Of a stretch of DNA of 32,000 bases, positions 9,850 through 24,191 are shown piece by piece; position 1 is the stretch's first letter; the number at the start of each line of letters is the position of its first letter. The notes beneath the pieces were generated by a model. It made no database searches, had not been told where the DNA came from, and saw only the letters and a list, made by a program, of their open reading frames with translations. Position numbers and translations under genes: made by a program. The DNA is from Lysobacteraceae bacterium (GTDB lineage: Bacteria; Bdellovibrionota; UBA1018; JAGTJX01). Location: NCBI GenBank assembly GCA_023657465.1, contig JAGTJX010000004.1, forward strand, positions 18,053 to 50,052, written 5' to 3'.

Positions 9850-9850
9850 T

Positions 9851-10103
9851 CGCGCCTTCTGCACAATACTATTTTGATACTTTCTGAACACACCCACAAG
9901 TAGTTTATATCAGCGGATGAGTGCTCCCTCTTTCTTTTTCAATCCGCACTCGAACGGGCTCCTGCCCTTTTATGGGAGCGCATCCAGCTCCATAAAATCT
10001 TGTGCTAATAGAAAAAGAAAGAGGGAGAGGCATGCAAAGCATGAGCTGTCTACTTGTGGGGTGTGTTCAGAAAGTATGAGACTACTGCTTTGCAGAAGGC
10101 GCG
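9851..10103. repeat. Long compound imperfect inverted repeat between convergent genes
   Basis: Outer arms: 9851-9863 pairs with 10091-10103 (13/13) and 9877-9902 pairs with 10051-10077 (26 of 27). Polypyrimidine 9924-9940 pairs with polypurine 10011-10027 (17/17). An inner hairpin spans 9968-9998. Confidence 0.85.
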
Positions 10104-11434
10104 ATAACAGAGTCTTGGGTGGTCCACCACTGTCCGAAATTCTCAATCGTCTGTTCAGACATCTTCTGTCTTAAGTCATCGCGTTTGAGTCCTGTGACAC
10201 CGGTGAAGAGAATCGGATTGAACAATCCAAAGTGAATATTAGAAGGCTGATAGTAATTGGGCTCAGATCCTGTGATGTGAGAGAGAAGTGCACCCAGAGC
10301 AGTGTTGAGTGGAGGAGGAGTGTAGGCTGCTCCCATGACTCTCTGATAAGCGAAGAAAGCTGCAAGAAGTCCACATGCTGATGATTCAACATAGCCTTCA
10401 ACGCCAGTGATCTGACCTGCTAGAAAAATATTAGAACGAGACTTAAGCGACAGATCTGGATTCAAAACCTTGGGTCCACAGACGTAAGTGTTTCTGTGGA
10501 TCGAACCTAAACGTAAGAACTCAACATTCTTAAGAGCGGGTATCATTTTGAATACGCGAGACTGTTCGCTGTACTTCAGTTTGGTTTGGAATCCCACGAT
10601 GTTGTAAGCAGTCTTGGCAATATTCTCAGAGCGGAGCTGCACGCATGCCCAAGGTCTGCGACCTGTCTTGGGATCAGTGAGTCCTACTGGCTTCATAGGT
10701 CCAAAACGTAAGCTTTCACGCCCTCCAGCTGCGATGGCCTCAATAGGTTGGCAACCTTGGAAGAAGTTTTCTTTCTCGAAGTTCTTGGGAGGGACTTTTT
10801 CCGCTGCGATCAGTGCATCGATGAATGCTTCGTATTCTTCCTTGTTCATCGGGCAATTGATGTAGGCACTCTCGCCACCTTTGTCGTAGCGATTGGCCAA
10901 GAATGATTTCTCAGGGTCGATGCTGTCTGCACTCACGATGGGTGCAATAGCATCATAAAAGTAGAGATCTCCTTCCCCTGTAGATTTTGCAATCCAAGAG
11001 GAGAGTGAATCTGAAGTGAGAGGTCCTGTAGCAATAATGGTGGGTGCTCCAAATTCAGGTGCAGAAACTTCTTCATTAACGAATGTAATGTTTGGGTGGT
11101 TTTTTAACTTCTCAGTAATGTATTTAGAAAATTGAACACGATCGACTGTGAGCGCTTCACCACCCGCGACGGCAGAGTCTTCGGCAGACTTCAGAATGAG
11201 AGAGCCCATTCTGATCATTTCGGCTTTTAGCATTCCAGGGGCAGAGGAGGGGGACTTGGACTTCAGGGAGTTGCTACAGACTAACTCTGCGCATTCGCCC
11301 GAATGATGGGCTTCGGTCATCTTGATGGGTCTCATTTCGTGAATCTCGACATGAATTCCATGTTCAGCCAACCAAAAAGCAGCTTCACTACCCGCTAAAC
11401 CGCTTCCTACGATGTGGATGTTTTTTTTGCCCAT
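10082..11434 (-). CDS. trmFO: Methylenetetrahydrofolate--tRNA-(uracil54-C5)-methyltransferase TrmFO
   Basis: N-terminal FAD-binding motif IHIVGSGLAGSEAA. Size is 450 aa. GidA-small-form pattern runs throughout (CSNSLKS, IATGPLTS, FLAGQITGVEGYVES). Confidence 0.9.
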   Translation of the reverse strand: MGKKNIHIVGSGLAGSEAAFWLAEHGIHVEIHEMRPIKMTEAHHSGECAELVCSNSLKSKSPSSAPGMLKAEMIRMGSLILKSAEDSAVAGGEALTVDRVQFSKYITEKLKNHPNITFVNEEVSAPEFGAPTIIATGPLTSDSLSSWIAKSTGEGDLYFYDAIAPIVSADSIDPEKSFLANRYDKGGESAYINCPMNKEEYEAFIDALIAAEKVPPKNFEKENFFQGCQPIEAIAAGGRESLRFGPMKPVGLTDPKTGRRPWACVQLRSENIAKTAYNIVGFQTKLKYSEQSRVFKMIPALKNVEFLRLGSIHRNTYVCGPKVLNPDLSLKSRSNIFLAGQITGVEGYVESSACGLLAAFFAYQRVMGAAYTPPPLNTALGALLSHITGSEPNYYQPSNIHFGLFNPILFTGVTGLKRDDLRQKMSEQTIENFGQWWTTQDSVIAPSAKQ

Positions 11435-11460
11435 GGCGAGCTGTCTAACACGGGCTTATA

Positions 11461-12375
11461 ATGATGTTAAGGATGAAGATTAAAGCAGCAATCACACGCT
11501 TCCTGGCTCATTTGACTGATGGAATTCAGGCATCTCCCCATACGGTCAGGGCTTATGAGGGAGATCTCATGAAGGGGTTACTTCCATGGGCAGAGAAGCA
11601 GGGGTGGTCGACGCTCTCACAGATTGAGAGTGGTCTATCTAAAGTCGAGCTGAGAACTTATATTTCGGAGCTCCTGGTTGATCACGAGAAGACTTCAGTG
11701 GTGAGAAGGCTTTCTTGTTTCAGAGCGTTCTTCCAATATCTCTATTCTCAGGGTCTCATCGATACGGATCTAGCAGTCAAAATTCCACTTCCTAAGATCT
11801 CAAAGCCACTTCCAGTGTTTCTCAAGATTGAAGAATTAGGAATGCTCATTGAATCTGTCCAGGGCGAGGATTTCTTCAAGCTTCGGGACCGAGCACTGAT
11901 CGAACTCATGTATGGTGCAGGGATCAGAGTCAGCGAAGTAGTGACTCTCAAGTGCTCAAATGTAGATCTCTCCCAAGGTTGGGTGAAGGTCATCGGTAAA
12001 GGCTCAAAAGAGCGAATGGTTCCCATTGGAAAAAAAACCGTGCAAGCACTTCAGGAGTACATGAAGTTTTTAAATGAGACTGCTCAAGCGCCAATTTTCG
12101 TAAATACGGGGAACAGACCACTCACGACTCGTGGGGTAAATGATATTCTTAAGCGTAGGCAATCTCAGGCAGGTCTAGAGAGACCGGTCTCTGCTCACGG
12201 GTTGCGTCACAGTTTTGCAACCCATCTCATGGCTGGTGGAGCGGATCTTAGGGTCATTCAAGAGATGTTGGGACACGTCACGCTGAGTACGACTCAGAAG
12301 TATACTCATTTGGATTTGGATCGGTTGTCTGAAGAAGTACTGATGCATCATCCTTTGAACAAAAAGGAAAAATAA
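11461..12375 (+). CDS. xerC: Xer-type tyrosine site-specific recombinase
   Basis: Catalytic signature residues are present: GIRVSE (Arg), HGLRHSFATHL (His-x-x-Arg), LGHVTLSTTQKYTH (His and Tyr). It sits next to trmFO, an arrangement known for xerC/codV. The XerC versus XerD call is uncertain. Confidence 0.8.
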   Translation: MMLRMKIKAAITRFLAHLTDGIQASPHTVRAYEGDLMKGLLPWAEKQGWSTLSQIESGLSKVELRTYISELLVDHEKTSVVRRLSCFRAFFQYLYSQGLIDTDLAVKIPLPKISKPLPVFLKIEELGMLIESVQGEDFFKLRDRALIELMYGAGIRVSEVVTLKCSNVDLSQGWVKVIGKGSKERMVPIGKKTVQALQEYMKFLNETAQAPIFVNTGNRPLTTRGVNDILKRRQSQAGLERPVSAHGLRHSFATHLMAGGADLRVIQEMLGHVTLSTTQKYTHLDLDRLSEEVLMHHPLNKKEK

Positions 12376-12396
12376 GCTACCTTAGCCTCATCTCTC

Positions 12397-13014
12397 ATGG
12401 ATCATCTTGTTGATTTTCTTTTGAATTTTTACGGCCCTACTCCTTACCTGATTATCTTTGGAGTTTTGCTTGCCTGCGGTCTCGGAGTTCCCATTCCAGA
12501 GGACATCACGCTCTTCGCAGCAGGTCTCATGGCTTACTACGGAGTTTCAGATCTCTATCTCATGATTGCCGTGAGCTTAGTGGGAGTGATGATGGGGGAT
12601 TCGATTATTTTTTGGTTGGGTCGTACAATCGGTTCTCAACTCACTAAGAAATGGTTTTTTGCAAAACTGCTTCCTCCTGATAGACTGGATCACGTAGGTA
12701 AGTTATTTCAAACACGCGGTAACAAATTATTATTTGCCGCAAGATTCATGCCGGGACTTCGTGCTCCAGTGTTTTTCTCAGCGGGTGTTCTCAAAGTGCC
12801 ATTCAAAACATTTTTCTTCTATGACGGAAGTGCGGCTCTCATCAGTGTTCCACTCATCATTGGTGCGGTTTATAAATTCGGAGACGAGCTAGACCAAGTC
12901 GTGCGAGTGATCAAGAAAATCGAAGGCGGAATAGTCATCGTCATTGCAGTAGTGATTCTAGGCATTATGGGTAAATGGTATTTCTCTCGCAAAAGAAAAA
13001 TAAAAGAAGCATGA
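12397..13014 (+). CDS. DedA/SNARE-associated family inner-membrane protein
   Basis: Multi-pass membrane protein with DedA-like motifs (GVPIPEDITLFAAG, GDSIIFWLGR, FAARFMPGLRAPVFFSAG). Confidence 0.8.
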   Translation: MDHLVDFLLNFYGPTPYLIIFGVLLACGLGVPIPEDITLFAAGLMAYYGVSDLYLMIAVSLVGVMMGDSIIFWLGRTIGSQLTKKWFFAKLLPPDRLDHVGKLFQTRGNKLLFAARFMPGLRAPVFFSAGVLKVPFKTFFFYDGSAALISVPLIIGAVYKFGDELDQVVRVIKKIEGGIVIVIAVVILGIMGKWYFSRKRKIKEA

Positions 13015-13889
13015 GAATGATTCCATTTATAATTTTAATGCAGTTGTTTTCTCTTCAAGCAAGAGCGACACCAGAAATCGATACGCTTTGCCAGGAAATC
13101 GACTTAGAAGTGAATGCTTTGAAGTGGAAGCTCCCGAGCTGCAATAAACTTGCGGAATGGAAAAGTCTGGGACAATCCGTAAAAGGTCGACCCCTCATTT
13201 ATGCTGAATTCGGAAACCCTGAATCAAAAAATACAACACTGATATTCTCCATGGTTCACGGTGATGAAATCACACCATTATTTATTGGTTTGAAGCTTGC
13301 AGACTGGCTTAAGCAGCAGCCAGTGATGCTCAAGACCCATCGTATTATTGTAGCTCCTCTGGTTAACCCAGATTCCTTCTTCTCTACACCGAGAACACGA
13401 GTGAATGCTCGTGGAGTTGATGTGAATCGGAATCTAGGCACTCTGGATTGGAAGTCCAAAGCGCTCCAGGCTTGGAAAACACAGTTCAAATCAGACAAAC
13501 GTAGATTCCCAGGTAATGAGCCTGACTCTGAGCCTGAAACGATATTTCAAAAAGACTTAATCAAGCTCACCAATCCTTCAAAAATCATGTCCGTTCATTC
13601 ACCTCTCAATCACTTGGATTACGATGGACCAACGACACTCTCTTTGTGGCGTTTTCCAAAAGACTATGTGGAAGAATGCATTAGGCTCAGTCAAAAAGTA
13701 AAAGCAAAATCTACAGGTTATTTTATTGGATCATTAGGTAACTATGCTGGAACAGAAAGAGGTATACCTACTTTCACCATGGAGTTACCTACTGCGAATC
13801 CCAAGAAAGCTTGGGATTATTGGCTTATCTTTAAAGCTGGGATCTATACAGTGATTCAGCATGGAGTTCCTAGAGTTGTCACGCATTAG
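13011..13889 (+). CDS. Secreted M14-family zinc carboxypeptidase-like protein (MpaA-like)
   Basis: I moved the start to ATG 13011, which forms an ATGA overlap with the dedA stop and precedes a signal peptide. Zinc motif HGDE, NPDSF and RGVDVNRN are present, with a later His (MSVHSP). Confidence 0.7.
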   Translation: MRMIPFIILMQLFSLQARATPEIDTLCQEIDLEVNALKWKLPSCNKLAEWKSLGQSVKGRPLIYAEFGNPESKNTTLIFSMVHGDEITPLFIGLKLADWLKQQPVMLKTHRIIVAPLVNPDSFFSTPRTRVNARGVDVNRNLGTLDWKSKALQAWKTQFKSDKRRFPGNEPDSEPETIFQKDLIKLTNPSKIMSVHSPLNHLDYDGPTTLSLWRFPKDYVEECIRLSQKVKAKSTGYFIGSLGNYAGTERGIPTFTMELPTANPKKAWDYWLIFKAGIYTVIQHGVPRVVTH

Positions 13890-14227
13890 CGCATTGAAGG
13901 ATTGAGTCTAGCCCATGCTGCAGAAGCTGGGTTACGGATAGGTGCAATTCTGTACCAATCACCATCCGAGTCGATGATTTGGTAGTCTTCTTTTTTGGCT
14001 AATCTTCCCACAATCGGAAAATAATCTGCAGGTCCTGATCTGAGTTCAAGTGAAGCATTGTCAGTTGAAAGTTTTGCAGAAAGAGGATGGGCGCGAGTGA
14101 TCGTAATGACGGGCTTCTTCTGAAGTTCTGCTAGTTTCTGAGATCCAGATACTGTTAAACCCACTCCAACGATAATGGACATCACTGATGAAAAAATAAA
14201 GGCTTTACTGAGTAAGTTAATTTTCAT
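13886..14227 (-). CDS. Secreted bacterial SH3-domain protein (last gene of the motAB-containing operon)
   Basis: Signal/TM segment at the N-terminus. SH3b-like C-terminus (GRLAKKEDYQIIDSDGDWYRI). GAGGAA SD is present. The start lies 16 nt after the motB stop. Confidence 0.55.
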   Translation of the reverse strand: MKINLLSKAFIFSSVMSIIVGVGLTVSGSQKLAELQKKPVITITRAHPLSAKLSTDNASLELRSGPADYFPIVGRLAKKEDYQIIDSDGDWYRIAPIRNPASAAWARLNPSMR

Positions 14228-14243
14228 CGTTCCTCAGGTTTAA

Positions 14244-15053
14244 TTATCTTACAGTTTCAGGAACTGTTTCAACCGGAACGTTTTGCCTAGAAGGCTCTTT
14301 GAAACCACTAAAAGGTATGGCGTGGATATCAGGGTGGAGTACGCGGACTACGACTCGGCGATTTTTTCCCATCGCTTCTTCACTGAGTTCTCCAGAGGGA
14401 GTGCGATCAGTGAGTTTGGGACGAGTGTCTCCGTACCCTATGGCTAGCATGTGAACAGGTAAAAACTTATTATCAATGAATTGTCTGACGATGCGAGAAG
14501 CCCTTGCTCCGGAGAGCTCCCAGTTTGAAGGGTAGATGCCACCAATAATGGGACGTTGGTCCGTATGGCCTTCAATGACAACGTTGTAATTTAACTTTTT
14601 TCGCTCTTGAGATTTCTTGATGGCGTTAGTAAGTTTTCCTAATACAAGTTTGCCATTGTCGGTAACATCAGCACTTCCAGTAATGAAAAACACTGCTGAT
14701 TCAAAAGTCACACTGACTCCCGTTTCATCGCTTGTGACGATGGACTCTTTATCAAGTCCAGCTTCTTGAATCATGTTTGAAATTTCTTTTTGAATATCTG
14801 CTGAAGGATTTTGATACTCGCCTTTGAAGTGCTTTGAGATTTCTTCTCTGACTTTTTCGAATTTGCCTTTTTCGAGATTTGCGAGACTGAACATCATGAT
14901 GAAGAATCCACAAAGGAGTGTCATCATGTCAGCATAAGAAATCAGCCAGTTGCCTTCACCTTCTTCTACATGTGGAGCGCTTGTATGATGTTCATACCTT
15001 TTGTCCTCATGGATCTCTGTCTGTTTTTTCTTAAATAAACTACGAATCGCCAT
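14244..15053 (-). CDS. motB: MotB-type stator protein with an OmpA-like peptidoglycan-binding domain
   Basis: NWLISYADMMTLLCGFFIMMF TM segment includes the conserved channel Asp. C-terminal OmpA-like motifs are GHTDQRPI, NWELSGARASRIVRQF and NRRVVVRV. Confidence 0.85.
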   Translation of the reverse strand: MAIRSLFKKKQTEIHEDKRYEHHTSAPHVEEGEGNWLISYADMMTLLCGFFIMMFSLANLEKGKFEKVREEISKHFKGEYQNPSADIQKEISNMIQEAGLDKESIVTSDETGVSVTFESAVFFITGSADVTDNGKLVLGKLTNAIKKSQERKKLNYNVVIEGHTDQRPIIGGIYPSNWELSGARASRIVRQFIDNKFLPVHMLAIGYGDTRPKLTDRTPSGELSEEAMGKNRRVVVRVLHPDIHAIPFSGFKEPSRQNVPVETVPETVR

Positions 15054-15057
15054 CGAA

Positions 15058-15843
15058 TTATGCCGCGGCTTTCTTCACAACGCGATCCTTTGGTAGAAGG
15101 AAAGAGTTTAAGCTCTCGCGCATTGCTATGGGGTTTGTGCTTTGTTTAAGAAGTAGAGCGCCTTCGATGATCATTCTTCGAAGCATGATTTCATCTTTGG
15201 TTCTCTCGGCGAGATTCTCTGCAATAGGAATGAAAACCATGTTGGCAAGTGTAATTCCGTAAAGAGTACCTACGAGACCAATTGACATCGCAGGTCCGAT
15301 CATTTTCTCAGCTCCGGGTTGACCTAGCTTTTGAAGAAGTGCAATCATCCCTAGAGTAGTAGCCAGAAGACCGAATGCTGGAGGAAACTTACCGATGACT
15401 CTAAACATGTTGGCTTCGTACATGTAGCGTGCTTCGATTGTTTTTAAGCGAGTCTCAAGCACTTGTCTAATCTCTTTTTCACTGAGTACTCCGTTTGAAA
15501 CGAGTGAAACAGCTTCTTTGAGGAATTCATGTTTGAGAGTAGGAACGACTTCGCTGATTGCAGATAAACCAGCTACAGCTTTTTTGTTGAGTTCTAAGAA
15601 CTGTTCAATGATGTGTTGATGGCTTGCGTGATTGATTCCTAAGACGCGAAGGAAGAAAACTTTTGTAAGAGCAAGAAGCTTAGTTACTGGGAAGCAGATA
15701 CTAGCAGCTGCTAAAGTTCCGCCGATAACGATTACGACTCCGTGGAAGTTTAAGAAGAACGCCATCTCCATTCCTGATTCATGAAGAGAGGCAACTACGA
15801 TCCCTAATCCCAATAGAACTCCAAAAAGTGAGGATAGATTCAA
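15058..15843 (-). CDS. motA: MotA/PomA-type stator channel protein
   Basis: 261 aa with a 2+2 TM topology and a large cytoplasmic loop. MotA/TolQ/ExbB signature region is FPPAFGLLATTLGMI...GPAMSIGLVGTLYGITLANMVFIPIAE. Confidence 0.85.
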   Translation of the reverse strand: MNLSSLFGVLLGLGIVVASLHESGMEMAFFLNFHGVVIVIGGTLAAASICFPVTKLLALTKVFFLRVLGINHASHQHIIEQFLELNKKAVAGLSAISEVVPTLKHEFLKEAVSLVSNGVLSEKEIRQVLETRLKTIEARYMYEANMFRVIGKFPPAFGLLATTLGMIALLQKLGQPGAEKMIGPAMSIGLVGTLYGITLANMVFIPIAENLAERTKDEIMLRRMIIEGALLLKQSTNPIAMRESLNSFLLPKDRVVKKAAA

Positions 15844-15845
15844 GA

Positions 15846-16355
15846 TTATGCAGCCTCCTTACGACGTGCAAGAGCTGTTTTCCACAGCTGGTATTGACTA
15901 ATGACGTATTTTTGATCTGTTTCTCTGAGACGAGCAATCATTGTGTCGATGCATGATTTGTAAAATCGCATTTTTCTAGAATCATCGCTCATGACATAGG
16001 CTTCAAACTTCTCTCTAGAAATCTGAAACACTTGGCAGTCCATGAGCGCTCTTACGGTTGCTGATCTTGGATTGTTATCGATGAGAGAGAGCTCACCAAA
16101 CACTGCGCCGGGCTGCAAGTGACCTAAGTCGTATTGATTGCTTCCCATCGGATTGGCCTTACTCACTCCGACTTGTCCATCAAGAAGTACGAACATACCA
16201 CCTTTGGTATCTCCTTCAATCATGATGTTGGTGTGAGCTTGTACGGCATAAGTTTCTCCAGTAGAAATTAACTCTTGGATCTCTTCATCAGTGAATCCAG
16301 AAAGGAGTTTCACTTCTTTGATCGTTTCTACAGTTGGAGCTTGTATCTCTGTCAT
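15846..16355 (-). CDS. Stand-alone cyclic-nucleotide-binding (CAP effector) domain protein
   Basis: The FGELSLIDNNPRSATVRA phosphate-binding cassette is typical of cNMP-binding domains. Length is 169 aa. It overlaps the upstream gene by 4 bp. Confidence 0.8.
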   Translation of the reverse strand: MTEIQAPTVETIKEVKLLSGFTDEEIQELISTGETYAVQAHTNIMIEGDTKGGMFVLLDGQVGVSKANPMGSNQYDLGHLQPGAVFGELSLIDNNPRSATVRALMDCQVFQISREKFEAYVMSDDSRKMRFYKSCIDTMIARLRETDQKYVISQYQLWKTALARRKEAA

Positions 16356-18616
16356 CCAGCCGCCTTGTAGAGAGCTGTATTCTCTCCGAACATTCTCTCA
16401 TTGGTTTCAATGAGATTAATGTGTCCATCTGTTGCCATGACTTTAATTCGGTTGAGTGCTTTTCGCTCAACCGCCATGTAGGCTTCTCTGTTTGGTGCTG
16501 GGAAGTTTGCTAGCTCTTCTTGTAATTCTTCTACTAAGTTAGTGGGTGCTTTTGAGAATACAACTCCACGAATTTCGTCGCTTGTACCGCGCAAGAAGGT
16601 AAGGAGCTCTTCGTGTTTGAGAGAAAGTACAAGATCAAGTAATTGATTGTCTTGCAAGTACTTGAGAGTCTCAAGACTGACTAACTTACTCTTAATAGTA
16701 CGAACACTATCAGGATTCACTGATCCTAGTGAGTGAACGACAGACTTCTGAGTTTCAGAATTAGACTTCTCAAGAAGAGTCACTAGCACATCTGACCCTG
16801 GTAATGCCTCTGTATTGAGTCTTGGATTTTCCACACGTTTACGTTTCAACGCGCTTGAGACGTTGTGAATATAATCTCTTGGTAAGTGGTCGATCCGTGT
16901 GAGTTCGGTTAATAGCTTCATTTTCACATCTTCTTCAAGATGTTGATAGATAGCGTTTCGTCTTTGGTGATCGACTTGAGTGAGAACGACAGCCTTTACT
17001 GTGAGAGATTCATTTCTTACGAGTTCAACAACTTGGAGTGCGTCCATTTCGACTAAGAAGTCGAAAAGACTTGAAGCCCGTGAACCCATAACGACCATCT
17101 TAGCTGCGACGGTTCTGTTATGAAGGTGTCTTAAGAGTTCAAGAGCGTCATCGTCTGCAATCTCTGTAGGGTTCTTAGCGTAATACTCCATGAGTTCTTG
17201 TAGATCTCCTTGAAGAGAAGGGTCTTTCAGCATGTCGATGACTACGCTTTCACCAAACATATGAATGTATTGTGCTGTGATTTCCATTCCTTCTTCTGTC
17301 AGGATTCTACTAAATACGTGTTTAGCGACTTTTGGCTGTTCGGCAAAAATCGTTGATAGCTCTTCTTTAAGCCGCTCGATTTCGTATCGCTTTGCAATAA
17401 TTGCTCCCTTGTCAGACCCACTACCAGAGTCTCCACCTGACTTGTATGTTGAGGGTGCGCTTGTAGATACTGGATCAGAAGTAAGGGATTGAAATATTCT
17501 GGAGACTCCAGATTTAGATTCACTACGAGAACCTCTAGCGCCAGCTATTGCGATGAAGATAAGAAGTAAAAGAATGGCGCAGCTGAAAATGAGCCCATAG
17601 ACTTTGAACTTTTGTAGTTCAGATTGAACTGCATCGCCATTTTCTACTCGTTCAATCTTTTCAAAACGTTCAAAACGTTCTTGTCTAGCAGTGTTGTGAT
17701 GTTCGTTTGAATTCTTGAATTCAGTATTGCTTGTTTTCTTATCTTCTGTTGAAGCAAATTTTCTATCTGTGTTCTCAGAGTTATTATTGGTAGTGTCGTT
17801 TTTGCTACTTGAACTAGAAGAATTATATCCGTTTGGATCCATGAGTGAACCAATCGACACGCCAGAGCTGGTCTTAGGGAACTTCATTACCTTAGACTTC
17901 ACATCTGCGTACTTCAGAAAGTTTGTTTTGAGTTTTGCCATCTCAATGATGTTGCGTTGCTCTTCGCCTGCAAGTACATCATTCATGAGTAGGGTACTAG
18001 AAACACGGTTGACCTTAATTGCGAAATCGCCATCTTGGAAAAACTCACCTGGAGAAGCGTATTGAGCTTCTTCAGTGTTGACTGGTTCGGCATTGATCTC
18101 GAAGTCAGCCATAATACAATTCTCAGGACAGACTTGTCCAATTAGCTCGTTCACGGCTTCTTTATATTGTCTAGAAACTCTCTCCCGTAGTTCTGCAAAC
18201 TTGCGAGCCGATGTTGCAGGTTGTGGAAACTTAGCGCTGGTCGTATCGATTCCTACTAAGTAGTTGAGACCTTCTAAGTTCTTCTTCATGAGATTGATGA
18301 AGTTATCTCGGGTTCCATTACCCAACATCGTATCGACTAAAATTTTTACTTTTGCTGATGCTGGTTTAAGATCAATTTCGTTAGAAAGAGTACGATCAGA
18401 GAATCCTGGAAGGAATTCGTCTGGTGTGGCCACTTCAACTTCAGCGTCTACTCCTAATAGCTTACATTGGTCAGGACAATATTTTGTGAGGAGTGGATCG
18501 ATGATTGCTCGAATGTCCGATTCAGACTTGCGCTTCACTTCTTCTACTGCACTGACTCTTTTTGCGTGCGACTCATTAGCACTGAATAGTATCGCTACAA
18601 ATAAAATAAACCTCAT
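16352..18616 (-). CDS. Membrane protein combining two FliF/EscJ-like ring-building-motif repeats (periplasmic), one TM helix and a FliG-like middle plus C-terminal region (cytoplasmic)
   Basis: Signal peptide is MRFILFVAILFSANESHA. Two alpha-beta-beta-alpha-beta-like repeats each carry a CPxxC (CPDQC, CPENC). An S/N/T-rich linker follows, then the TM segment VYGLIFSCAILLLLIFIAIAGA. The cytoplasmic part aligns by eye to FliG: FDFLVEMDALQVVELVRNE...LTQVDHQRRNAIYQHLEEDVKMKLLTELTRID, and LVSLETLKYLQDNQLLDLVLSLKHEELLTFLRGTSDEIRGVVFSKAP. Confidence 0.7.
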   Translation of the reverse strand: MRFILFVAILFSANESHAKRVSAVEEVKRKSESDIRAIIDPLLTKYCPDQCKLLGVDAEVEVATPDEFLPGFSDRTLSNEIDLKPASAKVKILVDTMLGNGTRDNFINLMKKNLEGLNYLVGIDTTSAKFPQPATSARKFAELRERVSRQYKEAVNELIGQVCPENCIMADFEINAEPVNTEEAQYASPGEFFQDGDFAIKVNRVSSTLLMNDVLAGEEQRNIIEMAKLKTNFLKYADVKSKVMKFPKTSSGVSIGSLMDPNGYNSSSSSSKNDTTNNNSENTDRKFASTEDKKTSNTEFKNSNEHHNTARQERFERFEKIERVENGDAVQSELQKFKVYGLIFSCAILLLLIFIAIAGARGSRSESKSGVSRIFQSLTSDPVSTSAPSTYKSGGDSGSGSDKGAIIAKRYEIERLKEELSTIFAEQPKVAKHVFSRILTEEGMEITAQYIHMFGESVVIDMLKDPSLQGDLQELMEYYAKNPTEIADDDALELLRHLHNRTVAAKMVVMGSRASSLFDFLVEMDALQVVELVRNESLTVKAVVLTQVDHQRRNAIYQHLEEDVKMKLLTELTRIDHLPRDYIHNVSSALKRKRVENPRLNTEALPGSDVLVTLLEKSNSETQKSVVHSLGSVNPDSVRTIKSKLVSLETLKYLQDNQLLDLVLSLKHEELLTFLRGTSDEIRGVVFSKAPTNLVEELQEELANFPAPNREAYMAVERKALNRIKVMATDGHINLIETNERMFGENTALYKAAG

Positions 18617-19335
18617 GGCGATGCTAACTTCCGTGATTGAACATATTTTTGTCTGTCGACAAATTTCTTTAATCCTATATTACTTGGATTAAACTCAAGG
18701 GCTTGGCCCCATGCCTTGATTGCTAAGTCTTGATAGCCTAACTTCTGAAGCACAGTCCCTCGCATTTCATAAAGTTTAGGATTGGTAGGATATTGTCTGA
18801 TCATTGGATCTACTTCAAGAAGCGCTGCTTCGAATCTACCCATGTTGTAGAGCTGTTTTACTTTATCAATCTTAGCAAGATAGCTACCATCAGAATCTGG
18901 TGTTTCATCTTGAGTAGGAGCAAGACCTAAGCCATTTTCAATTTCACGTCTTTTCCATTCATCGTTTGGATTACCTTTTGGAAAAGTTTGTTCAATCTCT
19001 CTATCTGCGATGGTTGGCTTTCTCTCATCATAGGTATAGTCGTACTGAGTATTCGATGCGACATTTCTTCCGCTGCTATTCATTTCATTAAAATCAGGAT
19101 TCATTGGCATAATAACATCGGTGATGTCTTTATCGGATTCTGGGATTTCGACTTCAATTGATCGATCGCCTTTTTTAGTTCTGAAAATCATTGGAGATTT
19201 AGATGCTTTAGCTGCGTTGTAGAAATCACCAAACGGGTTTTCAATAGGCTGAGCGCTTTCTTCTTTAGTTGAGAAAGCAGAACATCCAATCATGGTTGTC
19301 ATGAGCAATATGCTAAATATATTTTTCAAACTCAT
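18613..19335 (-). CDS. TPR-repeat lipoprotein
   Basis: Lipobox-like LMTTMIGC follows a signal sequence. C-terminal TPR-like repeats are present (GRFEAALLEVDPMIRQYPTNPKLYEMRGTVLQKLGYQDLAIKAWGQALEFNPSN). An ATGA overlap links it to the downstream gene. Confidence 0.7.
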   Translation of the reverse strand: MSLKNIFSILLMTTMIGCSAFSTKEESAQPIENPFGDFYNAAKASKSPMIFRTKKGDRSIEVEIPESDKDITDVIMPMNPDFNEMNSSGRNVASNTQYDYTYDERKPTIADREIEQTFPKGNPNDEWKRREIENGLGLAPTQDETPDSDGSYLAKIDKVKQLYNMGRFEAALLEVDPMIRQYPTNPKLYEMRGTVLQKLGYQDLAIKAWGQALEFNPSNIGLKKFVDRQKYVQSRKLASP

Positions 19336-19353
19336 TTAACCCTAGCCTCCGAT

Positions 19354-20517
19354 TCAAAACATTGCGCTTACGCCAAGACCGATTTCGATACCCGAAACAC
19401 TTCCTGCGCTTGTTCCACTCAGGAACGCTGTAGCAGGTGGTCTGTAGCCTAAGCTCACTGGAACTGCCCAGTGCTTACCAAAACGCCATTCATAGCCAAT
19501 GCGACCAATTGCACCTAAGAATCCAGATGCATAAGTGCCGCCAGCTGCGATAAAAAGACTGTTTCTAGCCTTGTTATAGCTTTCAATTTCTCCCCAGAGA
19601 TTCCACGCATGAACGAAAAGGAGTGTGAGGTTGAAGCCAGAGTAGAGATTGACTGTACCTGCAGTAGGAGTCACACCCATTAGCGTGTTAACGTCCATCA
19701 TGTAGTTCATTTCAAAACCGACTTCCTTCTTGCGATTGTCGTAACGTTCTACCATTCTAAATGCGAATCCAAGAACGCTTGAATAAGTTCCTACGTTTGC
19801 TTGATAGAAGTAATAGAGAGTTGGGCGATACATCACAGTAGGCGCGAATTCGATTTGATCCGTTTTAGGATTGATCTGATTGAAATCAACTCCACGACGG
19901 AATGCAGTGGCACGGGAAGTTTCAGAGTTATAACTCTTAGACCATGCAACAGTGCCTGTTTCGGCGTCTACTATATAGAAAGAAATGAGCATTCCAGAGG
20001 GTTGATAAGAAAATGCAATGTCCATGAAGTTTTCAATTCCAGACATTTTTGCAATTCTCGCTAATTGTACAGAGTTTCCATCAGTATTACTGATCACAAC
20101 ATTATCACCAAAAATATTTGCACTTTTTGCCTTACAAGGAAGACATTGAATCATTCTGGTTTTTGAGTTTCTGACAATTTTTTCACTGGTGACTAATTCT
20201 AAGTGCTGTCTGAATGACGGCGGTACGTTCTCACTGACTCCGATGTTTCGGATAGTGAGATTCTTCAGTCCTGAGACTTGTCCGTTTTTTACGTCGTACT
20301 CGAAGTCTGCAATCGTCTCTTCTAAGACTTGGTAGAAACTTCTAAATTTTTTGTCTTTATCTTTTTCCAAACCTAGCTTCGAACCAGTGGTTTCTGGAGC
20401 AGTGTCTTTTTGTAAACTCACGTTAGGCTCCGTCTCGTCAGATTTTGGTGCTACCTGTGCGTAGAGATATCCTGAAGTGATTAAGGCGATAAGCAAAATC
20501 AATAGATGCGAGCGCAC
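19354..20517 (-). CDS. Outer-membrane beta-barrel protein candidate (first gene of the operon)
   Basis: GTG start is preceded by AAGGAG. Signal peptide is MRSHLLILLIALITSGYLYAQ. The C-terminal half shows alternating hydrophobic and aromatic residues. The protein ends in Phe (GLGVSAMF), as is typical of OMPs. Confidence 0.55.
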   Translation of the reverse strand: MRSHLLILLIALITSGYLYAQVAPKSDETEPNVSLQKDTAPETTGSKLGLEKDKDKKFRSFYQVLEETIADFEYDVKNGQVSGLKNLTIRNIGVSENVPPSFRQHLELVTSEKIVRNSKTRMIQCLPCKAKSANIFGDNVVISNTDGNSVQLARIAKMSGIENFMDIAFSYQPSGMLISFYIVDAETGTVAWSKSYNSETSRATAFRRGVDFNQINPKTDQIEFAPTVMYRPTLYYFYQANVGTYSSVLGFAFRMVERYDNRKKEVGFEMNYMMDVNTLMGVTPTAGTVNLYSGFNLTLLFVHAWNLWGEIESYNKARNSLFIAAGGTYASGFLGAIGRIGYEWRFGKHWAVPVSLGYRPPATAFLSGTSAGSVSGIEIGLGVSAMF

Positions 20518-20844
20518 AAAGATTGTGCTCCTTCCTCAGATATCTCTTCGGACACAGGAGCTTGTGCTTAAGGACAAAGTAATTAATCTTGGGATTTAGT
20601 TAGTATTAGGTTGAAAATCGACATTTTTTTGTCAGTTCAGTGTGATTTACGTTTCTATTAAAAGTTAGAAGGAACAAGCGATGATCTGTATTCCTTAATA
20701 GAAAACGGCCTCAAAAATTGGAACGTTATTTAATAGAGATAGAAGGAGCCTGAATTTCTAGGCTCATTTTGAGAGTAGTGACTATATTTTACTCAAATAC
20801 ACATAATGGCAAAATCTACATCCCGGAAATAAGTAAATTCTAAG

Positions 20845-21042
20845 GTGAATTGTTTGAAAGATACGATTGTTAAGATGTTTCGTTCTTCATTCAAAAAGGT
20901 CGATAAAAAGTATATGGGAGTTCATTTGGTCATTCGCAATTTTCTTTATTGGATAACAGGTAATTCAGATAAACGTTTTTATGATATCTTTAATACAAAC
21001 AAGATAAAATTCAAATCTATAGATTCTGAAGAAAGCTTATGA
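20845..21042 (+). CDS. Hypothetical small protein (AT-rich ORF)
   Basis: 65 codons with a GTG start. An ATGA overlap with the next ORF is the only support. No homology was recognised. Confidence 0.3.
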   Translation: MNCLKDTIVKMFRSSFKKVDKKYMGVHLVIRNFLYWITGNSDKRFYDIFNTNKIKFKSIDSEESL

Positions 21043-21281
21043 TTTTTATAAGCCAACAAAAATTCACTACATTAACCAATGCAATGCTCCTTGTATTTTG
21101 TATTAGTTTTACTGGGATATTCGTACCCATAATTTCTTATTTCATGCAAAAAAAATGGTTTCCCTCAAAATACTCAAATTTGAATGCAGGTCTTCGAACA
21201 GAAGCAATACTAGTAGAATCCACAAGTAATAAGCGAGCAGTTGCAAGCCAGGTGAAACAACCTAAAAAAGTCCGGCGTTAA
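21039..21281 (+). CDS. Hypothetical membrane-anchored protein, possibly frameshifted at an A6 tract
   Basis: One predicted TM segment (AMLLVFCISFTGIFVPIISYF). After the A6 run at 21265-21270 the -1 frame stays open to 21463. Confidence 0.35.
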   Translation: MIFISQQKFTTLTNAMLLVFCISFTGIFVPIISYFMQKKWFPSKYSNLNAGLRTEAILVESTSNKRAVASQVKQPKKVRR

Positions 21282-21467
21282 GTCGGCCGATAATCAATAA
21301 GAATATTGCTACATCTCCAGCTAAGGAAGATTCCAAAGCTGAAAACCTTGCCGAAGCAGAAGCTCAAATAGCAGAAATCAAAACCGATCCTGAGTTTGAG
21401 CAGCTGTTTGGAGGCAATAGTGATTGGTTTTACAGAAGCTTTAGTTTTTGGAAAAATACTTGATGCA

Positions 21468-21511
21468 TTATTTGCAATTAATATTTGTTGGGTTATTTGC
21501 AATTAATATTT
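21468..21511. repeat. Tandem direct repeat, 2 copies of TTATTTGCAATTAATATTT with 25-bp period
   Basis: Copies at 21468-21486 and 21493-21511 are identical over 19 bp. Confidence 0.9.
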
Positions 21512-21671
21512 TTATCAAAATGAAATTCTGTAACTAGATTTTGTTCTTTTGATGCTACCTCAGCTAACCAACTCATCGTCTGGCACGCTTTGAAGAAGTG
21601 TCTCAATGGCATCCGCCTTTTCCTGGGTCACAAGAAAAAGCTTTCTCTTAGTTTCACTTTTAATCGCAACC

Positions 21672-21942
21672 TCAATAAGGCGCGTTTTCACGACTACCGA
21701 CATAAGTTACCTCCACTATTTTAACTTCGTTATTCACTACTTCCCAAACAGCAACATAGCTATAATTCAAATGGCAGTGATGAGTTCCATCAGTAAGTTT
21801 TGGATAGTTAGGTCAATTCACAGCGAACTGGACCGTTTGCCATGATATTGGCGATCAGGATCTGAAGTAATTCCCGAACATTTTTGGGCAGTTTACTTGG
21901 ACCTTTTACAGCCTTTTTCTTGGTTTTAACTGTCCAGGTCAA
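21672..21942 (-). pseudogene. Decayed RelE/ParE-superfamily-like toxin gene (1-nt frameshift plus in-frame TGA)
   Basis: Two frames read TWTVKTKKKAVKGPSKLPKNVRELLQILIANIMANGPVR and then N*PNYPKLTDGTHHCHLNYSYVAVWEVVNNEVKIVEVTYVGSRENAPY. The span is 271 nt, which is not a multiple of 3. A TGA sits where Trp is expected. Family assignment is by eye. Confidence 0.5.
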
Positions 21943-21961
21943 CTTTATTTCTAGTAAAAAA

Positions 21962-22141
21962 CTAAGCTCTCTTTTTACCAGGAGGGGAAGCCAATATTTT
22001 TTTAGCTTCCTCTAAATCCACCAGCTGATCAGTAACGTAGCGATGAATCACTGAGCCCACTAAGGTTTGGTAGGGAAGTCCATGCTTGAGCGCTAGCTTC
22101 TGTAACTTGAGCAAGTCCTCTTCTGGCAAACGAATGTTCAT
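21962..22141 (-). CDS. Ribbon-helix-helix (CopG/BrnA-like) antitoxin, 59 aa
   Basis: This ORF is below the track threshold. It reads MNIRLPEEDLLKLQKLALKHGLPYQTLVGSVIHRYVTDQLVDLEEAKKILASPPGKKRA. The LPxxxL...G.PYQTL pattern is typical of RHH antitoxins. It lies directly upstream of the toxin remnant. Confidence 0.6.
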   Translation of the reverse strand: MNIRLPEEDLLKLQKLALKHGLPYQTLVGSVIHRYVTDQLVDLEEAKKILASPPGKKRA

Positions 22142-22342
22142 ACGTTCAGATTTTGAGCTCTTAGAAGACCGAACTATTAGATTTGCTCGTTAAATCGAAG
22201 AGTTTTGATCCGAGCATTGCTTGGAAAACATTGGATGAATGAGAGCCGTACATATTTCGCTAAAAGCGAAGGATAGGCCATTCTCATTTAGTGAAACTGA
22301 CTCTTATTTCGTTTTTAGCGAAACATAGTGAAAAGGAAGTGT

Positions 22343-23044
22343 ATGAATAGAAATTTTTTATTGGTTTTAATGAGCATCACAGCATCTGCCTTCGCTCAAG
22401 AGCCATTCAATGCTTTATCTAGTTATAATAACGAGACTCATCCCATTTTACTTACAATTGAATTGCAAGAGACTAAGTCTTGGAAAGAAACAAACTCAAC
22501 AACTATAGCAAATATTTATGCTGATGAATCTGAGGAAGAGGTGGCACATAAATTACTTTTTCATAAGAAACATAATTTAATTGAAAATAAACTTTCTAAG
22601 TATCCTGTTTATGAAAGTATTAAGTCCATAATGGTGAATGCTAGAGAAGAAATTTATAGAACAATGCCTCAATCAATCACGAGAAAGACAATTTCAGAAC
22701 ATGGAACTGAATACCCAGTAATTATTGCTGATTTCAACCTTTTAGAAAATAAAGTGAGACTTTATTTATCAAGCAGCTCTAACTACAACGTAGAATTTGA
22801 TAGAATGTTACAAATTAGAAGAGATCGAATGAATGTTCTTGCTGGAACTAACTTCAGAATGGCACCTCCCACTCCAGGCGTTCCTCCGATTGAAAAAATT
22901 AATTTAAACGAAACACTAACTACTGAAGATAAAACTAAAATCACTAAACAATTAATAGATGCTATTCATTCTGCTTTTTCAATTACTATCAATACTTTTG
23001 AGTTTAATGAAAAATTGAGAACTACCATTGATTTGTTTAGTTAA
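22343..23044 (+). CDS. Secreted hypothetical protein
   Basis: I moved the start to ATG 22343, which follows AGGAAG. Signal peptide is MNRNFLLVLMSITASAFAQE. No homology was recognised. Confidence 0.6.
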   Translation: MNRNFLLVLMSITASAFAQEPFNALSSYNNETHPILLTIELQETKSWKETNSTTIANIYADESEEEVAHKLLFHKKHNLIENKLSKYPVYESIKSIMVNAREEIYRTMPQSITRKTISEHGTEYPVIIADFNLLENKVRLYLSSSSNYNVEFDRMLQIRRDRMNVLAGTNFRMAPPTPGVPPIEKINLNETLTTEDKTKITKQLIDAIHSAFSITINTFEFNEKLRTTIDLFS

Positions 23045-23266
23045 AAAATACTTAACCCTGATCACTAGCTCGCTTGATGCGTACTAAAGTAAAAGATTAA
23101 AATCACAAAAACGGGCCAAACAGAGCAGAGTGAGCGGGAAACAACGAAGTTGTTTCGTGCGATGCTCCAAATCTTGAGAGCTCCAGGTTTAAGCTGTACC
23201 CCTTCTAACCAAGAAGCACTGCAGCTACAGAACCCCTTCTGAAATAGCATTGACAGATGAACATTA

Positions 23267-23295
23267 GATTGTTACACAGCGATTAGATTTTAAAT
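23267..23295 (+). repeat. 29-bp conserved upstream element, copy 1 (GATTGTTACACAGCGATTAGATTTTAAAT)
   Basis: Identical to 23642-23670. It contains a possible TTGTTA -35 and an A/T-rich -10. It lies about 31 nt upstream of ATG 23326. Confidence 0.85.
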
Positions 23296-23325
23296 ATTAA
23301 ACAGATAACTGAAGGGGAAAACTCA

Positions 23326-23616
23326 ATGAAAAATATATTTTTTGGAATGCTCGCTCTCGCTAGTTCAACTCAAGCGTTCGCCGCTTGGCCTGAAACACAG
23401 TTGTTTTGTAAAAACGGAAAACTCTACGGAATCATCTATAACAATGATCCATTTATTGTTACGGAGTTTACCAATCAGAAAGAGTGTTCAAACAGCTTCG
23501 TGAATAGAAAATATTGCAAGGAAGCCAACATGCACGTCGTCTATGTCAAAGATGATCAAGCAGTAGAACACTATGCTACTCAAGACGAATGTCGCGAGGC
23601 TATTGGTAAAAATTAA
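23326..23616 (+). CDS. Small secreted Cys-containing protein
   Basis: Signal peptide is MKNIFFGMLALASSTQAFA. The mature part of 77 aa has 4 Cys. No homology was recognised. Confidence 0.6.
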   Translation: MKNIFFGMLALASSTQAFAAWPETQLFCKNGKLYGIIYNNDPFIVTEFTNQKECSNSFVNRKYCKEANMHVVYVKDDQAVEHYATQDECREAIGKN

Positions 23617-23641
23617 CCTATAGAGATATAAAAGAACGTAG

Positions 23642-23670
23642 GATTGTTACACAGCGATTAGATTTTAAAT
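23642..23670 (+). repeat. 29-bp conserved upstream element, copy 2
   Basis: Identical to 23267-23295. It lies about 24 nt upstream of ATG 23694. Confidence 0.85.
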
Positions 23671-23693
23671 TATTGGTTTTAGGAGTACTGAAT

Positions 23694-24098
23694 ATGAAAA
23701 ATATCCTGTCGATAATTTTATTTTTATCAAGCCTGAGTGCTTTTGCCTATGAGTACCCTGCTGCAAAAAGAGATCGTCCAATTATCGAAAAAGCCTTGAA
23801 TATGTACGACATTTCATTTGATGAACTCAAGTTCCCTTTAAAACGTCAGATTTTTACAGGAACCATGACTGCTTTAACTAAAATTCCAGAACTTGTTTCA
23901 TTTTTGACTGGTCTAGGCGATCAGCATTTCGTCACTCTCCATGTTATTGAAGGAAAGTTTAATCATGAGCAAAAGACATGCATCGCATATGTGCAGTTGA
24001 ACTTTGATAATACTCAAGAAGTTGAAATTGCAAATTGTGGCACTCATTACACTGACTTTTTCAGTTCCAAAAGATTAGTTCCACTCACTAGACCCTGA
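23694..24098 (+). CDS. Small secreted hypothetical protein
   Basis: I moved the start to ATG 23694, which follows AGGAG. Signal peptide is MKNILSIILFLSSLSAFA. Confidence 0.6.
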   Translation: MKNILSIILFLSSLSAFAYEYPAAKRDRPIIEKALNMYDISFDELKFPLKRQIFTGTMTALTKIPELVSFLTGLGDQHFVTLHVIEGKFNHEQKTCIAYVQLNFDNTQEVEIANCGTHYTDFFSSKRLVPLTRP

Positions 24099-24101
24099 TT
24101 A

Positions 24102-24188
24102 CATGAGCGCTGTTTGCTCATTAATTTAAAGAACTTAACGTGCACCCGAAGGCCTAATTGACATTCGGGCGTTTCCATTTCTATGAAA
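24102..24188 (+). repeat. Linker left module, copy 1 (hairpin 1 ATGAGC-N7-GCTCAT, hairpin 2 CCCGAA-N13-TTCGGG, then CGTTTCCATTTCTATGAAA)
   Basis: The same two-hairpin unit recurs at 27381-27422, 28801-28880 and 29297-29375. Hairpin 2 followed by a T-rich tail resembles an intrinsic terminator for the upstream plus-strand gene. Confidence 0.8.
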
Positions 24189-24191
24189 TAA

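Follow-up and report, generated by a model that had tools for sequence, protein, structure and literature searches.

An operon of uncultured Bdellovibrionota pairs a FliF/FliG-like fusion protein with its own flagellar-type stator and probably encodes a second motor-driven envelope machine

We analyzed a 32,000-nucleotide (nt) stretch of contig JAGTJX010000004.1 (assembly GCA_023657465.1), referred to below as the window, in which seven tightly packed minus-strand open reading frames (ORFs) span positions 13886-20517 (Table 1). In the order of transcription, these ORFs encode proteins of 387, 240, 754, 169, 261, 269 and 113 amino acids (aa): a predicted outer-membrane protein, a probable lipoprotein with tetratricopeptide repeats (TPR), a fusion of FliF-like and FliG-like parts that we call FliGL, a cyclic nucleotide monophosphate (cNMP)-binding protein, the two subunits of a MotA/MotB-type stator and a membrane-anchored SH3 protein. 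Neighboring genes overlap by exactly 4 nt at 18613-18616 and 16352-16355, and the remaining gaps measure 18, 2, 4 and 16 nt. A preliminary description of the locus, made from the sequence, had given the same seven ORF coordinates, both overlaps and all four gaps, every one of which we reproduced; its domain assignments (TPR, FliG_M with FliG_C, cNMP_binding, MotA_ExbB, MotB_plug with OmpA, and SH3_3) all hold in Pfam as well. It had further noted that the operon has no flagellar genes on either side, and a Pfam scan of nearly all window ORFs that reach 100 aa likewise detected none.

Table 1. Positions of the operon's genes, the parts of FliGL and the putative promoter within the window.
Feature	Position	Strand	Evidence
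FliA/sigma-28-like promoter: TTAAG (20571-20567), N15, CCGAAGA (20551-20545)	20545..20571	-	motif search
Predicted outer-membrane protein, 387 aa, signal peptide, GTG start	19354..20517	-	AlphaFold pLDDT 78, Foldseek
Probable lipoprotein, 240 aa, lipobox MIGC, C-terminal TPR	18613..19335	-	Pfam
FliGL, FliF/FliG-like fusion, 754 aa	16352..18616	-	210 database homologues
FliGL predicted signal peptide, residues 1-18, MRFILFVAILFSANESHA	18563..18616	-	read from sequence; hydrophobic leader also in family members
FliGL predicted periplasmic repeat 1, residues 20-128, alpha-beta-beta-alpha-beta, invariant C47/C51	18233..18559	-	AlphaFold, Foldseek
FliGL predicted periplasmic repeat 2, residues 134-244, invariant C163/C167	17885..18217	-	AlphaFold, Foldseek
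FliGL Ser/Asn/Thr-rich low-complexity linker, residues 253-310, length varies in family	17687..17860	-	alignment
FliGL juxtamembrane segment (residues 311-338, ERFEKIERVENGDAV) and transmembrane helix (339-361)	17534..17686	-	alignment, hydropathy
FliGL cytoplasmic FliG-like region, residues ~408-735	16412..17395	-	Pfam, phmmer, alignments
Stand-alone cNMP-binding protein, 169 aa	15846..16355	-	Pfam cNMP_binding E 2e-20
MotA-type stator A subunit, 261 aa, TTG start	15058..15843	-	Pfam MotA_ExbB
MotB-type stator B subunit, 269 aa	14244..15053	-	Pfam MotB_plug 1.6e-15, OmpA 1.7e-13
Membrane-anchored SH3_3 protein, 113 aa	13886..14227	-	Pfam SH3_3 E 1.3e-6

The homologues of FliGL are publicly annotated as "hypothetical protein" or, automatically, as "FliG". 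Unlike the ~330-aa soluble FliG of a fliF-fliG-fliH operon, however, FliGL is predicted to be membrane-anchored, and its gene sits between those of the TPR lipoprotein and the cNMP and MotA proteins. Its residues 19-252 were modeled with AlphaFold from 34 homologues (predicted local distance difference test, pLDDT, 84.5), and the resulting model consists of two tandem alpha-beta-beta-alpha-beta repeats with the topology of ring-building motifs, the second of which carries an additional inserted hairpin bearing a conserved VNxEEAQYG. The ten best matches of this model in a Foldseek comparison with the PDB were chains of the Salmonella FliF MS-ring (E 6.5e-8 to 1e-3), while the injectisome ring proteins PrgK, PrgH and YscD ranked below FliF, so that the ring-like periplasmic domains proposed in the preliminary description are recovered in the predicted fold. 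No corresponding signal came from sequence: the YscJ_FliF profile (PF01514) matched none of 34 family members at E values up to 10, no FliF or SctJ appeared when PDB sequences were searched with a FliGL profile, and hhalign of FliGL against the FliF proteins of E. coli and of the flagellated relative FG-1 (described below) was not significant. We therefore rejected a sequence-level kinship of FliGL with FliF or SctJ. The non-significant hhalign alignment placed the start of FliGL repeat 2 on the start of the third ring-building motif of FG-1 FliF ("VNETQTTYDQEG"). The only internal hydrophobic window of FliGL with a Kyte-Doolittle value above 1.6 is the helix at residues 339-361, and the periplasmic juxtamembrane segment just before it (17603-17686) is the most invariant stretch of the protein.

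On the cytoplasmic side, FliGL matches Pfam FliG_M at residues 528-594 (E 2.8e-7) and FliG_C at residues 629-735 (E 2.7e-13), both above the gathering scores, and phmmer matches it to residues 49-326 of Aquifex aeolicus FliG (3HJL, E 5e-9). A search of this protein with FliG and ring-motif profiles had been proposed earlier; the FliG part of that proposal is borne out, whereas the ring-motif part is not, the repeats being visible in the predicted structure only. FliGL is far from a canonical FliG, scoring 53.1 bits against TIGR00207 (fliG), below the equivalog cutoff of 226.7, and sharing 19% identity with the canonical FliG of FG-1. Alignments with the FliG proteins of E. coli, T. maritima, A. 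aeolicus and FG-1 locate the differences. The FliM-binding EHPQ...R (E125-H-P-Q and R160) is replaced by E536-S-L-T and E571, with the E, the T and E571 invariant in 45/45 FliGL sequences, the S present in 44 of the 45 and the L position variable; P606-G607 stands where FliG has its Gly-Gly linker. The equivalent of the torque helix (residues 693-709) is all-acidic (E696, E697, E700 and E701), keeping the equivalents of D288/D289 as E700/E701 and that of K264 as K or R, but losing R281 (now N, D or E) and R297 (now N, S or G). Beyond the FliG fold, a conserved C-terminal extension (16355-16420) with no FliG counterpart reads INLxETNERMF and ends, in most members, in KKVAGW.

The stator subunits encoded directly downstream are of flagellar type. 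Over its whole length, MotA resembles flagellar stators of known structure (C. sporogenes MotA 6YSF, 1e-33; PomA 8BRD, 1e-28), and all eight significant NCBIfam matches of the A subunit are full-length matches to flagellar MotA, PomA or MotP. The equivalents of E. coli P173 and P222 are P155 and P206, invariant in 69/69 sequences, and MotB D42 (14928-14930), which lies in the transmembrane helix and corresponds to E. coli D32, is invariant in all 67 sequences compared; behind this helix follow a plug and an OmpA-like peptidoglycan-binding domain. Since all NCBIfam equivalog cutoffs were missed (at best 147 bits versus 394 on the MotA side and 137 versus 283 on the MotB side), we consider these subunits diverged paralogues rather than orthologues of known stators. 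The positions that face the rotor have changed in MotA too: the R90 equivalent is V90 (S in the family) and the E98 equivalent is S97 (N in the family), with conserved K87/K88 just upstream and E98 (+1) near the altered positions. By comparison, the canonical FliG of the same lineage keeps both EHPQ and the R...DE...R torque helix. Because MotA lacks the E98 charge and FliGL its partner R281, because an acidic helix faces a basic loop, and because the canonical FliG is unchanged, we infer from these sequences that the MotA–FliGL interface is private and co-evolved.

The first two genes of the operon encode candidate envelope partners. The 387-aa protein has no match in Pfam or NCBIfam, but its AlphaFold model agrees with the earlier suggestion of an outer-membrane barrel, as it predicts an 8-strand C-terminal barrel (~228-385) behind a periplasmic alpha/beta domain (~60-200, with invariant C125/C128), the chain ending in ...SAMF. 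Foldseek comparison with the PDB related the N-terminal part to the TolB N-domain, LpoB-C, GNA1162, PelC and FlgT, and the barrel to OmpA, OmpW, OmpX and NspA. The 240-aa protein shows weak TPR_2, TPR_11 and TPR_14 matches at residues 159-220, and a lipobox-like motif was present in 41 of its 71 homologues as judged by a crude pattern. Invariant pairs of cysteines recur among the periplasmic parts, with one CxxxC per FliGL repeat at a helix-to-strand turn and a CxxC in the N-domain of the barrel protein; these probably form structural disulfides, although they could conceivably bind metal.

To place the operon among genomes, we scanned one genome per species and found 91 loci, of which 80 were kept. 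All kept loci belong to uncultured Bdellovibrionota, labeled Bacteriovoracaceae, Oligoflexia or Bdellovibrionales, and include the GTDB class UBA1018, CAIRTR01 and the organisms FG-1 and FG-2. The order barrel–TPR–FliGL–(cNMP)–MotA–MotB was found by tblastn in every locus with enough flanking sequence (~80 species-level genomes), with translationally coupled junctions whose medians are -4 to +5 nt. The same order with such tight junctions in ~80 species is far from a chance arrangement, and the neighborhood check proposed in the preliminary description thus returns a synteny that recurs outside flagellar loci; the genes that flank the cluster in relatives are unrelated housekeeping genes. A flagellar-type MotA/MotB pair is always encoded beside a fusion of predicted periplasmic FliF-like repeats, one transmembrane helix and a cytoplasmic FliG-like region, and a barrel protein with a TolB-N/FlgT-like domain and a TPR lipoprotein always accompany the fusion and stator.

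More distant forms of the cluster exist. A profile of the FliGL periplasmic domain matched only 147 proteins among 1.84 billion representatives, in size classes of ~750-830, 910-990 and 570-620 aa. All ten of those that were scanned had FliG-like or MgtE_N-like C-terminal matches, weak in the short variants. Three distant fusion proteins (603, 611 and 969 aa) all adjoin MotA–MotB, and two of these three clusters also have barrel and TPR genes; in the cluster of the 969-aa protein (L083), the barrel homologue shares 28% identity (E 1e-41) and is joined by a homologous TPR region, in a different gene order. The long variant was also found in a metagenome-assembled genome (MAG) of Silvanigrellales. 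The core of the system is therefore five genes (barrel, TPR, FliGL, MotA and MotB), which distant variants retain in a different order.

Two observations on gene content stand beside this core. The 611-aa variant (L084, on a 7.5-Mb contig of 67% GC) belongs to a longer cluster of same-strand genes at 1120-13365. Besides the fusion, MotA and MotB, this cluster encodes a pair of OMP_b-brl barrels, a pair of large TPR-like proteins, a 325-aa protein and one of 180 aa that matches TonB_C weakly; it may represent the system in a more elaborate form, in another lineage. In 46 of 51 related loci, the barrel gene is immediately preceded by a divergently transcribed 288-aa lipoprotein gene without a Pfam match (L001:5005-5871, minus strand); no homologue of it was found in the window, and it was left out as an eighth component for this reason. 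It could be a dispensable eighth component or a mere conserved neighbor.

The cNMP-binding protein has an intact phosphate-binding cassette of the FGE...R[ST]A type (FGELSLIDNNPRSA, residues 86-99, 16059-16100), which is kept in 59 of 60 homologues, and no DNA-binding domain follows the cNMP domain in the 169-aa protein. The preliminary description had made modulation by cyclic nucleotides a defining trait of the machine, which does not survive comparison: the gene is missing from the distant variants and from 12 loci in which FliGL and MotA are adjacent, at distances of 0-96 nt, mostly 2-7 nt. These loci are L038, L046, L047, L049, L052, L054, L055, L056, L058, L070, L072 and L077, and most of them have E-S-N-T in place of E-S-L-T at the former EHPQ site. 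The SH3 gene named in that description is present; it proves, however, to be a shortened form of a gene that in relatives encodes 275-425 aa with Zn_ribbon_4, a transmembrane helix and SH3_3, and that directly follows MotB on the same strand in 39 of 66 loci. Both the cNMP and the Zn-ribbon/SH3 genes are accessory.

These distributions bear on the possibility that the operon encodes a regulatory or sensory device, in which FliGL would act as a decoy rotor that sequesters or activates stators, reads membrane potential or load and reports through the cNMP protein without mechanical work. Flagellar stators are mechanosensors, and most loci do carry a cNMP gene with an intact cassette between the rotor-like and stator genes. 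However, a whole subclade and the distant variants do without this gene, whereas the outer-membrane barrel and TPR lipoprotein are always kept and are left unexplained by cytoplasmic signaling, so we consider a purely sensory role very unlikely. The second-messenger brakes of the YcgR type, which act on flagellar motors through a PilZ/c-di-GMP domain, offer a parallel: the cNMP protein is likewise a small nucleotide-binding protein, encoded with a rotor–stator pair, that could bind MotA or FliG. It differs in having a CAP-type cNMP-binding domain rather than PilZ and in missing from part of the family.

The carriers of the operon that were checked also have canonical flagellar genes. FG-1 and FG-2, of the GTDB class UBA1018, are magnetotactic, vibrioid, presumed predatory bacteria that each bear one polar flagellum of unusual thickness (PMC13200544). 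The genome supplement of FG-1 lists a full flagellar operon with FlgBC, FliE, FliF (558 aa), FliG (337 aa), FliH through FliR including FliM and FliN, FlhB, FlhA and FlhF, and its canonical FliG has EHPQ (NEHPQT). FG-2 and MAG LF-bin-178 likewise have a canonical FliG beside the cluster in the same genome. The question raised earlier of whether such genomes hold a separate fliF and fliG is thus settled for both genes in FG-1 and for FliG in FG-2 and LF-bin-178. Canonical FliG is 84-90% identical across the clade, compared with ~50% for FliGL. Given this separate and far better conserved FliG, FliGL is an additional, rapidly evolving paralogue rather than the sole fliF/fliG of the genome.

Low identity across the clade, together with the truncated SH3 gene of the window, would also be expected if the operon were a relic of a duplicated flagellar locus, decaying and now without function. 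This is hardly credible, as the ORFs are intact, the junctions overlap and dozens of residues are invariant across ~80 species and beyond, the catalytic Asp and the prolines included, and the promoter described below is conserved. FG-1 itself contains two different FliGL loci (L065 and L067), each cut by a contig end near residue ~570, which suggests that it holds two paralogous clusters whose similar 3' parts broke the assembly. Some of the public taxonomic labels of these genomes are wrong: the MAG of the window (KA715_12850) is called "Xanthomonadaceae bacterium" although all relatives are Bdellovibrionota, and LF-bin-178 is labeled "Methylotenera sp." in one record and Oligoflexia in another.

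The putative promoter of the operon begins 54 nt ahead of the first gene's GTG; between them, at 20537-20528, lies a strong ribosome-binding site, GAGGAAGGAG. The search pattern, T[CT]AAG-N14-17-CCGA[AT][AGT]A, has a single match in the window, which alone is not significant since 27% of shuffles have at least one. Its significance comes instead from positional conservation: 33 of 64 related loci have the motif immediately ahead of their first gene, and 4 more have it slightly beyond the scanned range, while ~0.7 are expected from background. It is absent from the distant clusters L083 and L084, and a search for a sigma-54 promoter found none. The window motif fits the FliA type, TTAAG/TAAAG – ~15-16 nt – (G)CCGATA(A), and the attack-phase FliA consensus of B. 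bacteriovorus is TTAAG-N16-CCGATA (PMC3627812). Because of this match, the operon is probably FliA-driven and co-expressed with late flagellar or attack-phase genes. The preliminary description had called the machine self-contained and distinct from the flagellum, and this holds for gene content but not for regulation, as the FliA-type promoter and the flagellated hosts tie the operon to the flagellar or attack-phase regulon.

Such regulation raises the possibility that the operon serves the polar flagellum itself, as a lineage-specific accessory of its motor made up of a special stator set and periplasmic and outer-membrane scaffold parts. FliGL could then be an extra ring concentric with the MS/C-ring, as SctD is around SctJ, that holds or gears the stators of a thick and probably sheathed flagellum. 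The hosts' unusually thick polar flagellum, the conserved promoter and the N-domain fold that the barrel protein has in common with TolB-N, LpoB and FlgT would all fit, and a flagellin gene adjoins one distant variant. Genes for motAB and motor accessories are typically sigma-28-dependent, and the high-torque polar motors of Vibrio and Campylobacter recruit lipoproteins and outer-membrane, TPR and OmpA-like proteins whose genes lie away from the main flagellar loci; examples are FlgT, FlgO, FlgP, MotX and MotY in Vibrio and PflA, PflB and FlgP in Campylobacter. The operon resembles these systems in combining an outer-membrane protein, a lipoprotein, TPR, a TolB-N/FlgT-like fold and OmpA-like anchors with a stator, and Bdellovibrio-like organisms have 1-4 motAB pairs (PMC11323537).

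Several findings argue against such an accessory role. The operon MotA lacks R90/E98 while the lineage's canonical FliG keeps the partner charges, so this stator appears poorly suited to the canonical rotor. FliGL has its own predicted ring-building repeats and a full rotor-like FliG region from which the FliM site has been lost, rather than a scaffold fold, and the polar-motor systems are not known to contain a second FliG-like or FliF-like protein; nor did the operon proteins match those accessory families in Pfam or NCBIfam. Moreover, the cluster was never in or beside a flagellar operon in the ~80 main-family loci, and no named cultured Bdellovibrio, Bacteriovorax or Halobacteriovorax genome was among the matches of the pattern-based scan, which may miss divergent copies. 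We therefore regard the accessory role as the main alternative, but as rather unlikely.

Comparison with the flagellar core shows both shared and divergent features. Like the flagellum, the operon has a stator homologous over its full length to MotA/PomA, with the MotB Asp, plug and OmpA-like domain, a FliGL with the M and C domains of FliG, an aligned N region and predicted FliF-like repeats, and a sigma-28-type promoter. Unlike the flagellum, it joins FliF-like and FliG-like parts in one polypeptide with a predicted cleaved signal peptide and one membrane helix instead of the two of FliF; the EHPQR site for FliM is gone, the R281/R297 charges of FliG and the R90/E98 charges of MotA are missing at the canonical positions, and the cluster lacks genes for FliM/N, export gate, rod, hook and filament.

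The closest published architecture to FliGL is a fusion of FliF and FliG that occurs naturally in Chlamydiaceae (Bergeron 2016, PMC4768692). There, a short FliF-like protein with a pair of ring-building motifs has a cytoplasmic FliG-like end, in organisms with no complete flagellar system, for which only FliF, FliL and FlhA are listed as flagellar genes. This fusion is ~330 aa long, keeps both FliF membrane helices and has only a piece resembling the FliG middle domain, whereas FliGL contains a whole FliG (N, M and C, including the stator-facing helix) and has a dedicated MotAB adjacent. To our knowledge, Chlamydia lacks MotAB. An engineered full-length FliF–FliG fusion of Salmonella, with a 1:1 link, is described as still assembling rings (PMC6079021). 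The engineered Salmonella fusions sit inside a complete flagellum, in contrast with FliGL, a naturally occurring and diverged paralogue whose two repeats are followed by a long disordered linker. Deletion-fusion FliF–FliG mutants with working motors have reportedly also been obtained by Francis et al. and Thomas et al.

Taken together, these findings indicate that the operon probably encodes a second motor-driven envelope machine. More specifically, we would give roughly even chances to a flagellum-derived, separately encoded rotor–stator module in which FliGL forms rings, is driven by its own MotAB and is coupled to the outer-membrane barrel and TPR lipoprotein, with an optional cNMP brake. 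The ring-building repeats would let FliGL assemble into a ring in the inner membrane, on which the FliG-like C-domains are displayed, and ion flow would turn MotA5B2, which would push the acidic torque helix of the FliGL ring through the private interface. Movement or force would then pass through the periplasmic ring and the long linker to the TPR lipoprotein and outer-membrane barrel. Where present, the cNMP protein might brake or clutch the ring or stator, as YcgR does on flagellar motors, and the Zn-ribbon–TM–SH3 protein might be an accessory anchor or regulator. FliA (sigma-28) would drive expression along with late flagellar or attack-phase genes, and candidate outputs include envelope work at a pole, surface movement and prey invasion. 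In its boldest form, which we hold only tentatively and think rather doubtful, the module would be a free-standing rotary engine without axle, export apparatus or filament, located away from the flagellar base, for instance at the pointed non-flagellated pole, and working on the envelope or on prey.

A number of points weigh against the rotor–stator module. Ring formation, rotation and contact between inner- and outer-membrane parts are proposed from sequences and models, and it is an AlphaFold model that supplies the FliF likeness of FliGL; of the force-transducing or rotary machine proposed in the preliminary description, the separate and conserved operon stands, while rotation is something that we infer. 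The canonical charges R90/E98 of MotA and R281/R297 of FliG are missing from the operon pair as aligned. The torque-helix region is poorly conserved in the distant variants, which makes the rotor–stator charge comparison uninformative there. Between the predicted periplasmic repeats and the membrane helix lies a disordered linker of ~60 residues, which would transmit torque poorly. The co-occurrence with canonical flagellar genes was observed in FG-1, FG-2 and LF-bin-178, genomes other than the window's own MAG. Finally, the flagellated hosts, FliA promoter, neighboring flagellin and FlgT-like fold would suit a flagellar accessory equally well.

The flexible linker also fits a non-rotary force transducer of the Tol/Ton/Agl-Glt type, in which FliGL would be an anchored adaptor that is pulled or twisted by MotA5B2 without forming a rotor ring, and whose periplasmic domain would pass work on to the barrel and TPR lipoprotein, to tether the outer membrane, glide over surfaces or remodel the envelope. 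Tol-Pal, Ton, Agl-Glt, GldLM and Zorya resemble the operon in that an A5B2 motor of the inner membrane is combined with an adaptor that crosses this membrane once to reach the periplasm, and with partners in the outer membrane; here too the parts would span the envelope from an inner-membrane motor and a single-pass adaptor to TPR, a TolB-N-like barrel protein and an OmpA-like anchor. The seventh gene, with its Zn-ribbon–TM–periplasmic domain layout in relatives, presumably resembles Myxococcus GltJ in topology, and the distant L084 cluster ends in the weakly TonB_C-like protein. The A subunits of those 5:2 motors, however, are TolQ, ExbB, AglR, GldL or ZorA, whereas that of the operon is full-length flagellar MotA/PomA type; their adaptors are TolA-, TonB- or GldM-like, whereas the partner here is FliG-like, and the only known role of FliG is that of a rotor surface that forms rings. 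Repeats of the ring-building motif are moreover a hallmark of ring formers. We accordingly judge a non-rotary transducer to be unlikely. Zorya or another defense system was rejected because PADLOC found no ZorA, ZorC or ZorD, only generic ZorB/MotB similarity.

In flagella, FliG is the known rotor surface that faces the stators, and stators of the MotA/PomA class are not known outside flagellar motors; here, a FliG-like protein and a MotA/PomA-class stator form a conserved private pair, encoded in an operon of their own by hosts that keep a full canonical flagellum. Full-text searches of the literature on FliG-like proteins accompanied by MotAB in non-flagellar settings gave no description of the cluster, and a MotAB phylogeny paper does not mention it. 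If the rotor–stator module is an independent machine, it would add to the short list of ion-driven envelope motors, and its single rotor polypeptide, with no switch and no export gate, would suit the study of torque and of modular flagellar evolution. As a natural minimal rotor–stator pair, it would bear on how the torque core can exist apart from type III secretion, and a free-standing engine would be a new kind of bacterial rotary machine. Should the operon instead belong to the flagellar motor, that motor would contain a second FliG-like ring, in itself a previously unknown element of motor architecture. The cluster also gives a large uncultured clade (GTDB UBA1018, "Bdellonasia") a distinguishing cell-biological feature that can be tested.

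The surroundings of the operon in the window are mixed. To its left lie housekeeping genes for an HD-domain protein, SMC, a leucine-rich-repeat protein and a GidA-family (GIDA domain) protein, along with those for a tyrosine recombinase of the phage-integrase family, a VTT/DedA-type membrane protein and an M14 peptidase; no Rfam family or tRNA was found in the window. Two adjacent plus-strand ORFs at 7299-8141 (280 aa) and 8119-9849 (576 aa), next to the leucine-rich-repeat protein gene (6074-7129), have no Pfam match. The M14 carboxypeptidase gene (12975-13889, plus strand) converges with the minus-strand SH3 gene, and their stop codons overlap by 4 nt at 13886-13889, leaving no room for an intervening terminator. 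On the other side, the stretch at 20600-30000 is low in GC (35-40% versus 41-47% elsewhere) and holds short ORFs, several without a family match, among them HTH_37 (24705-25007, minus), Fic/DOC (25784-26449, minus) and HVO_A0114/HTH_20 (27440-27841, minus), with a TetR-like gene (31353-31883, minus) just past it. Relatives hold other genes in this place, and the stretch looks like an inserted island with toxin-antitoxin-like genes.

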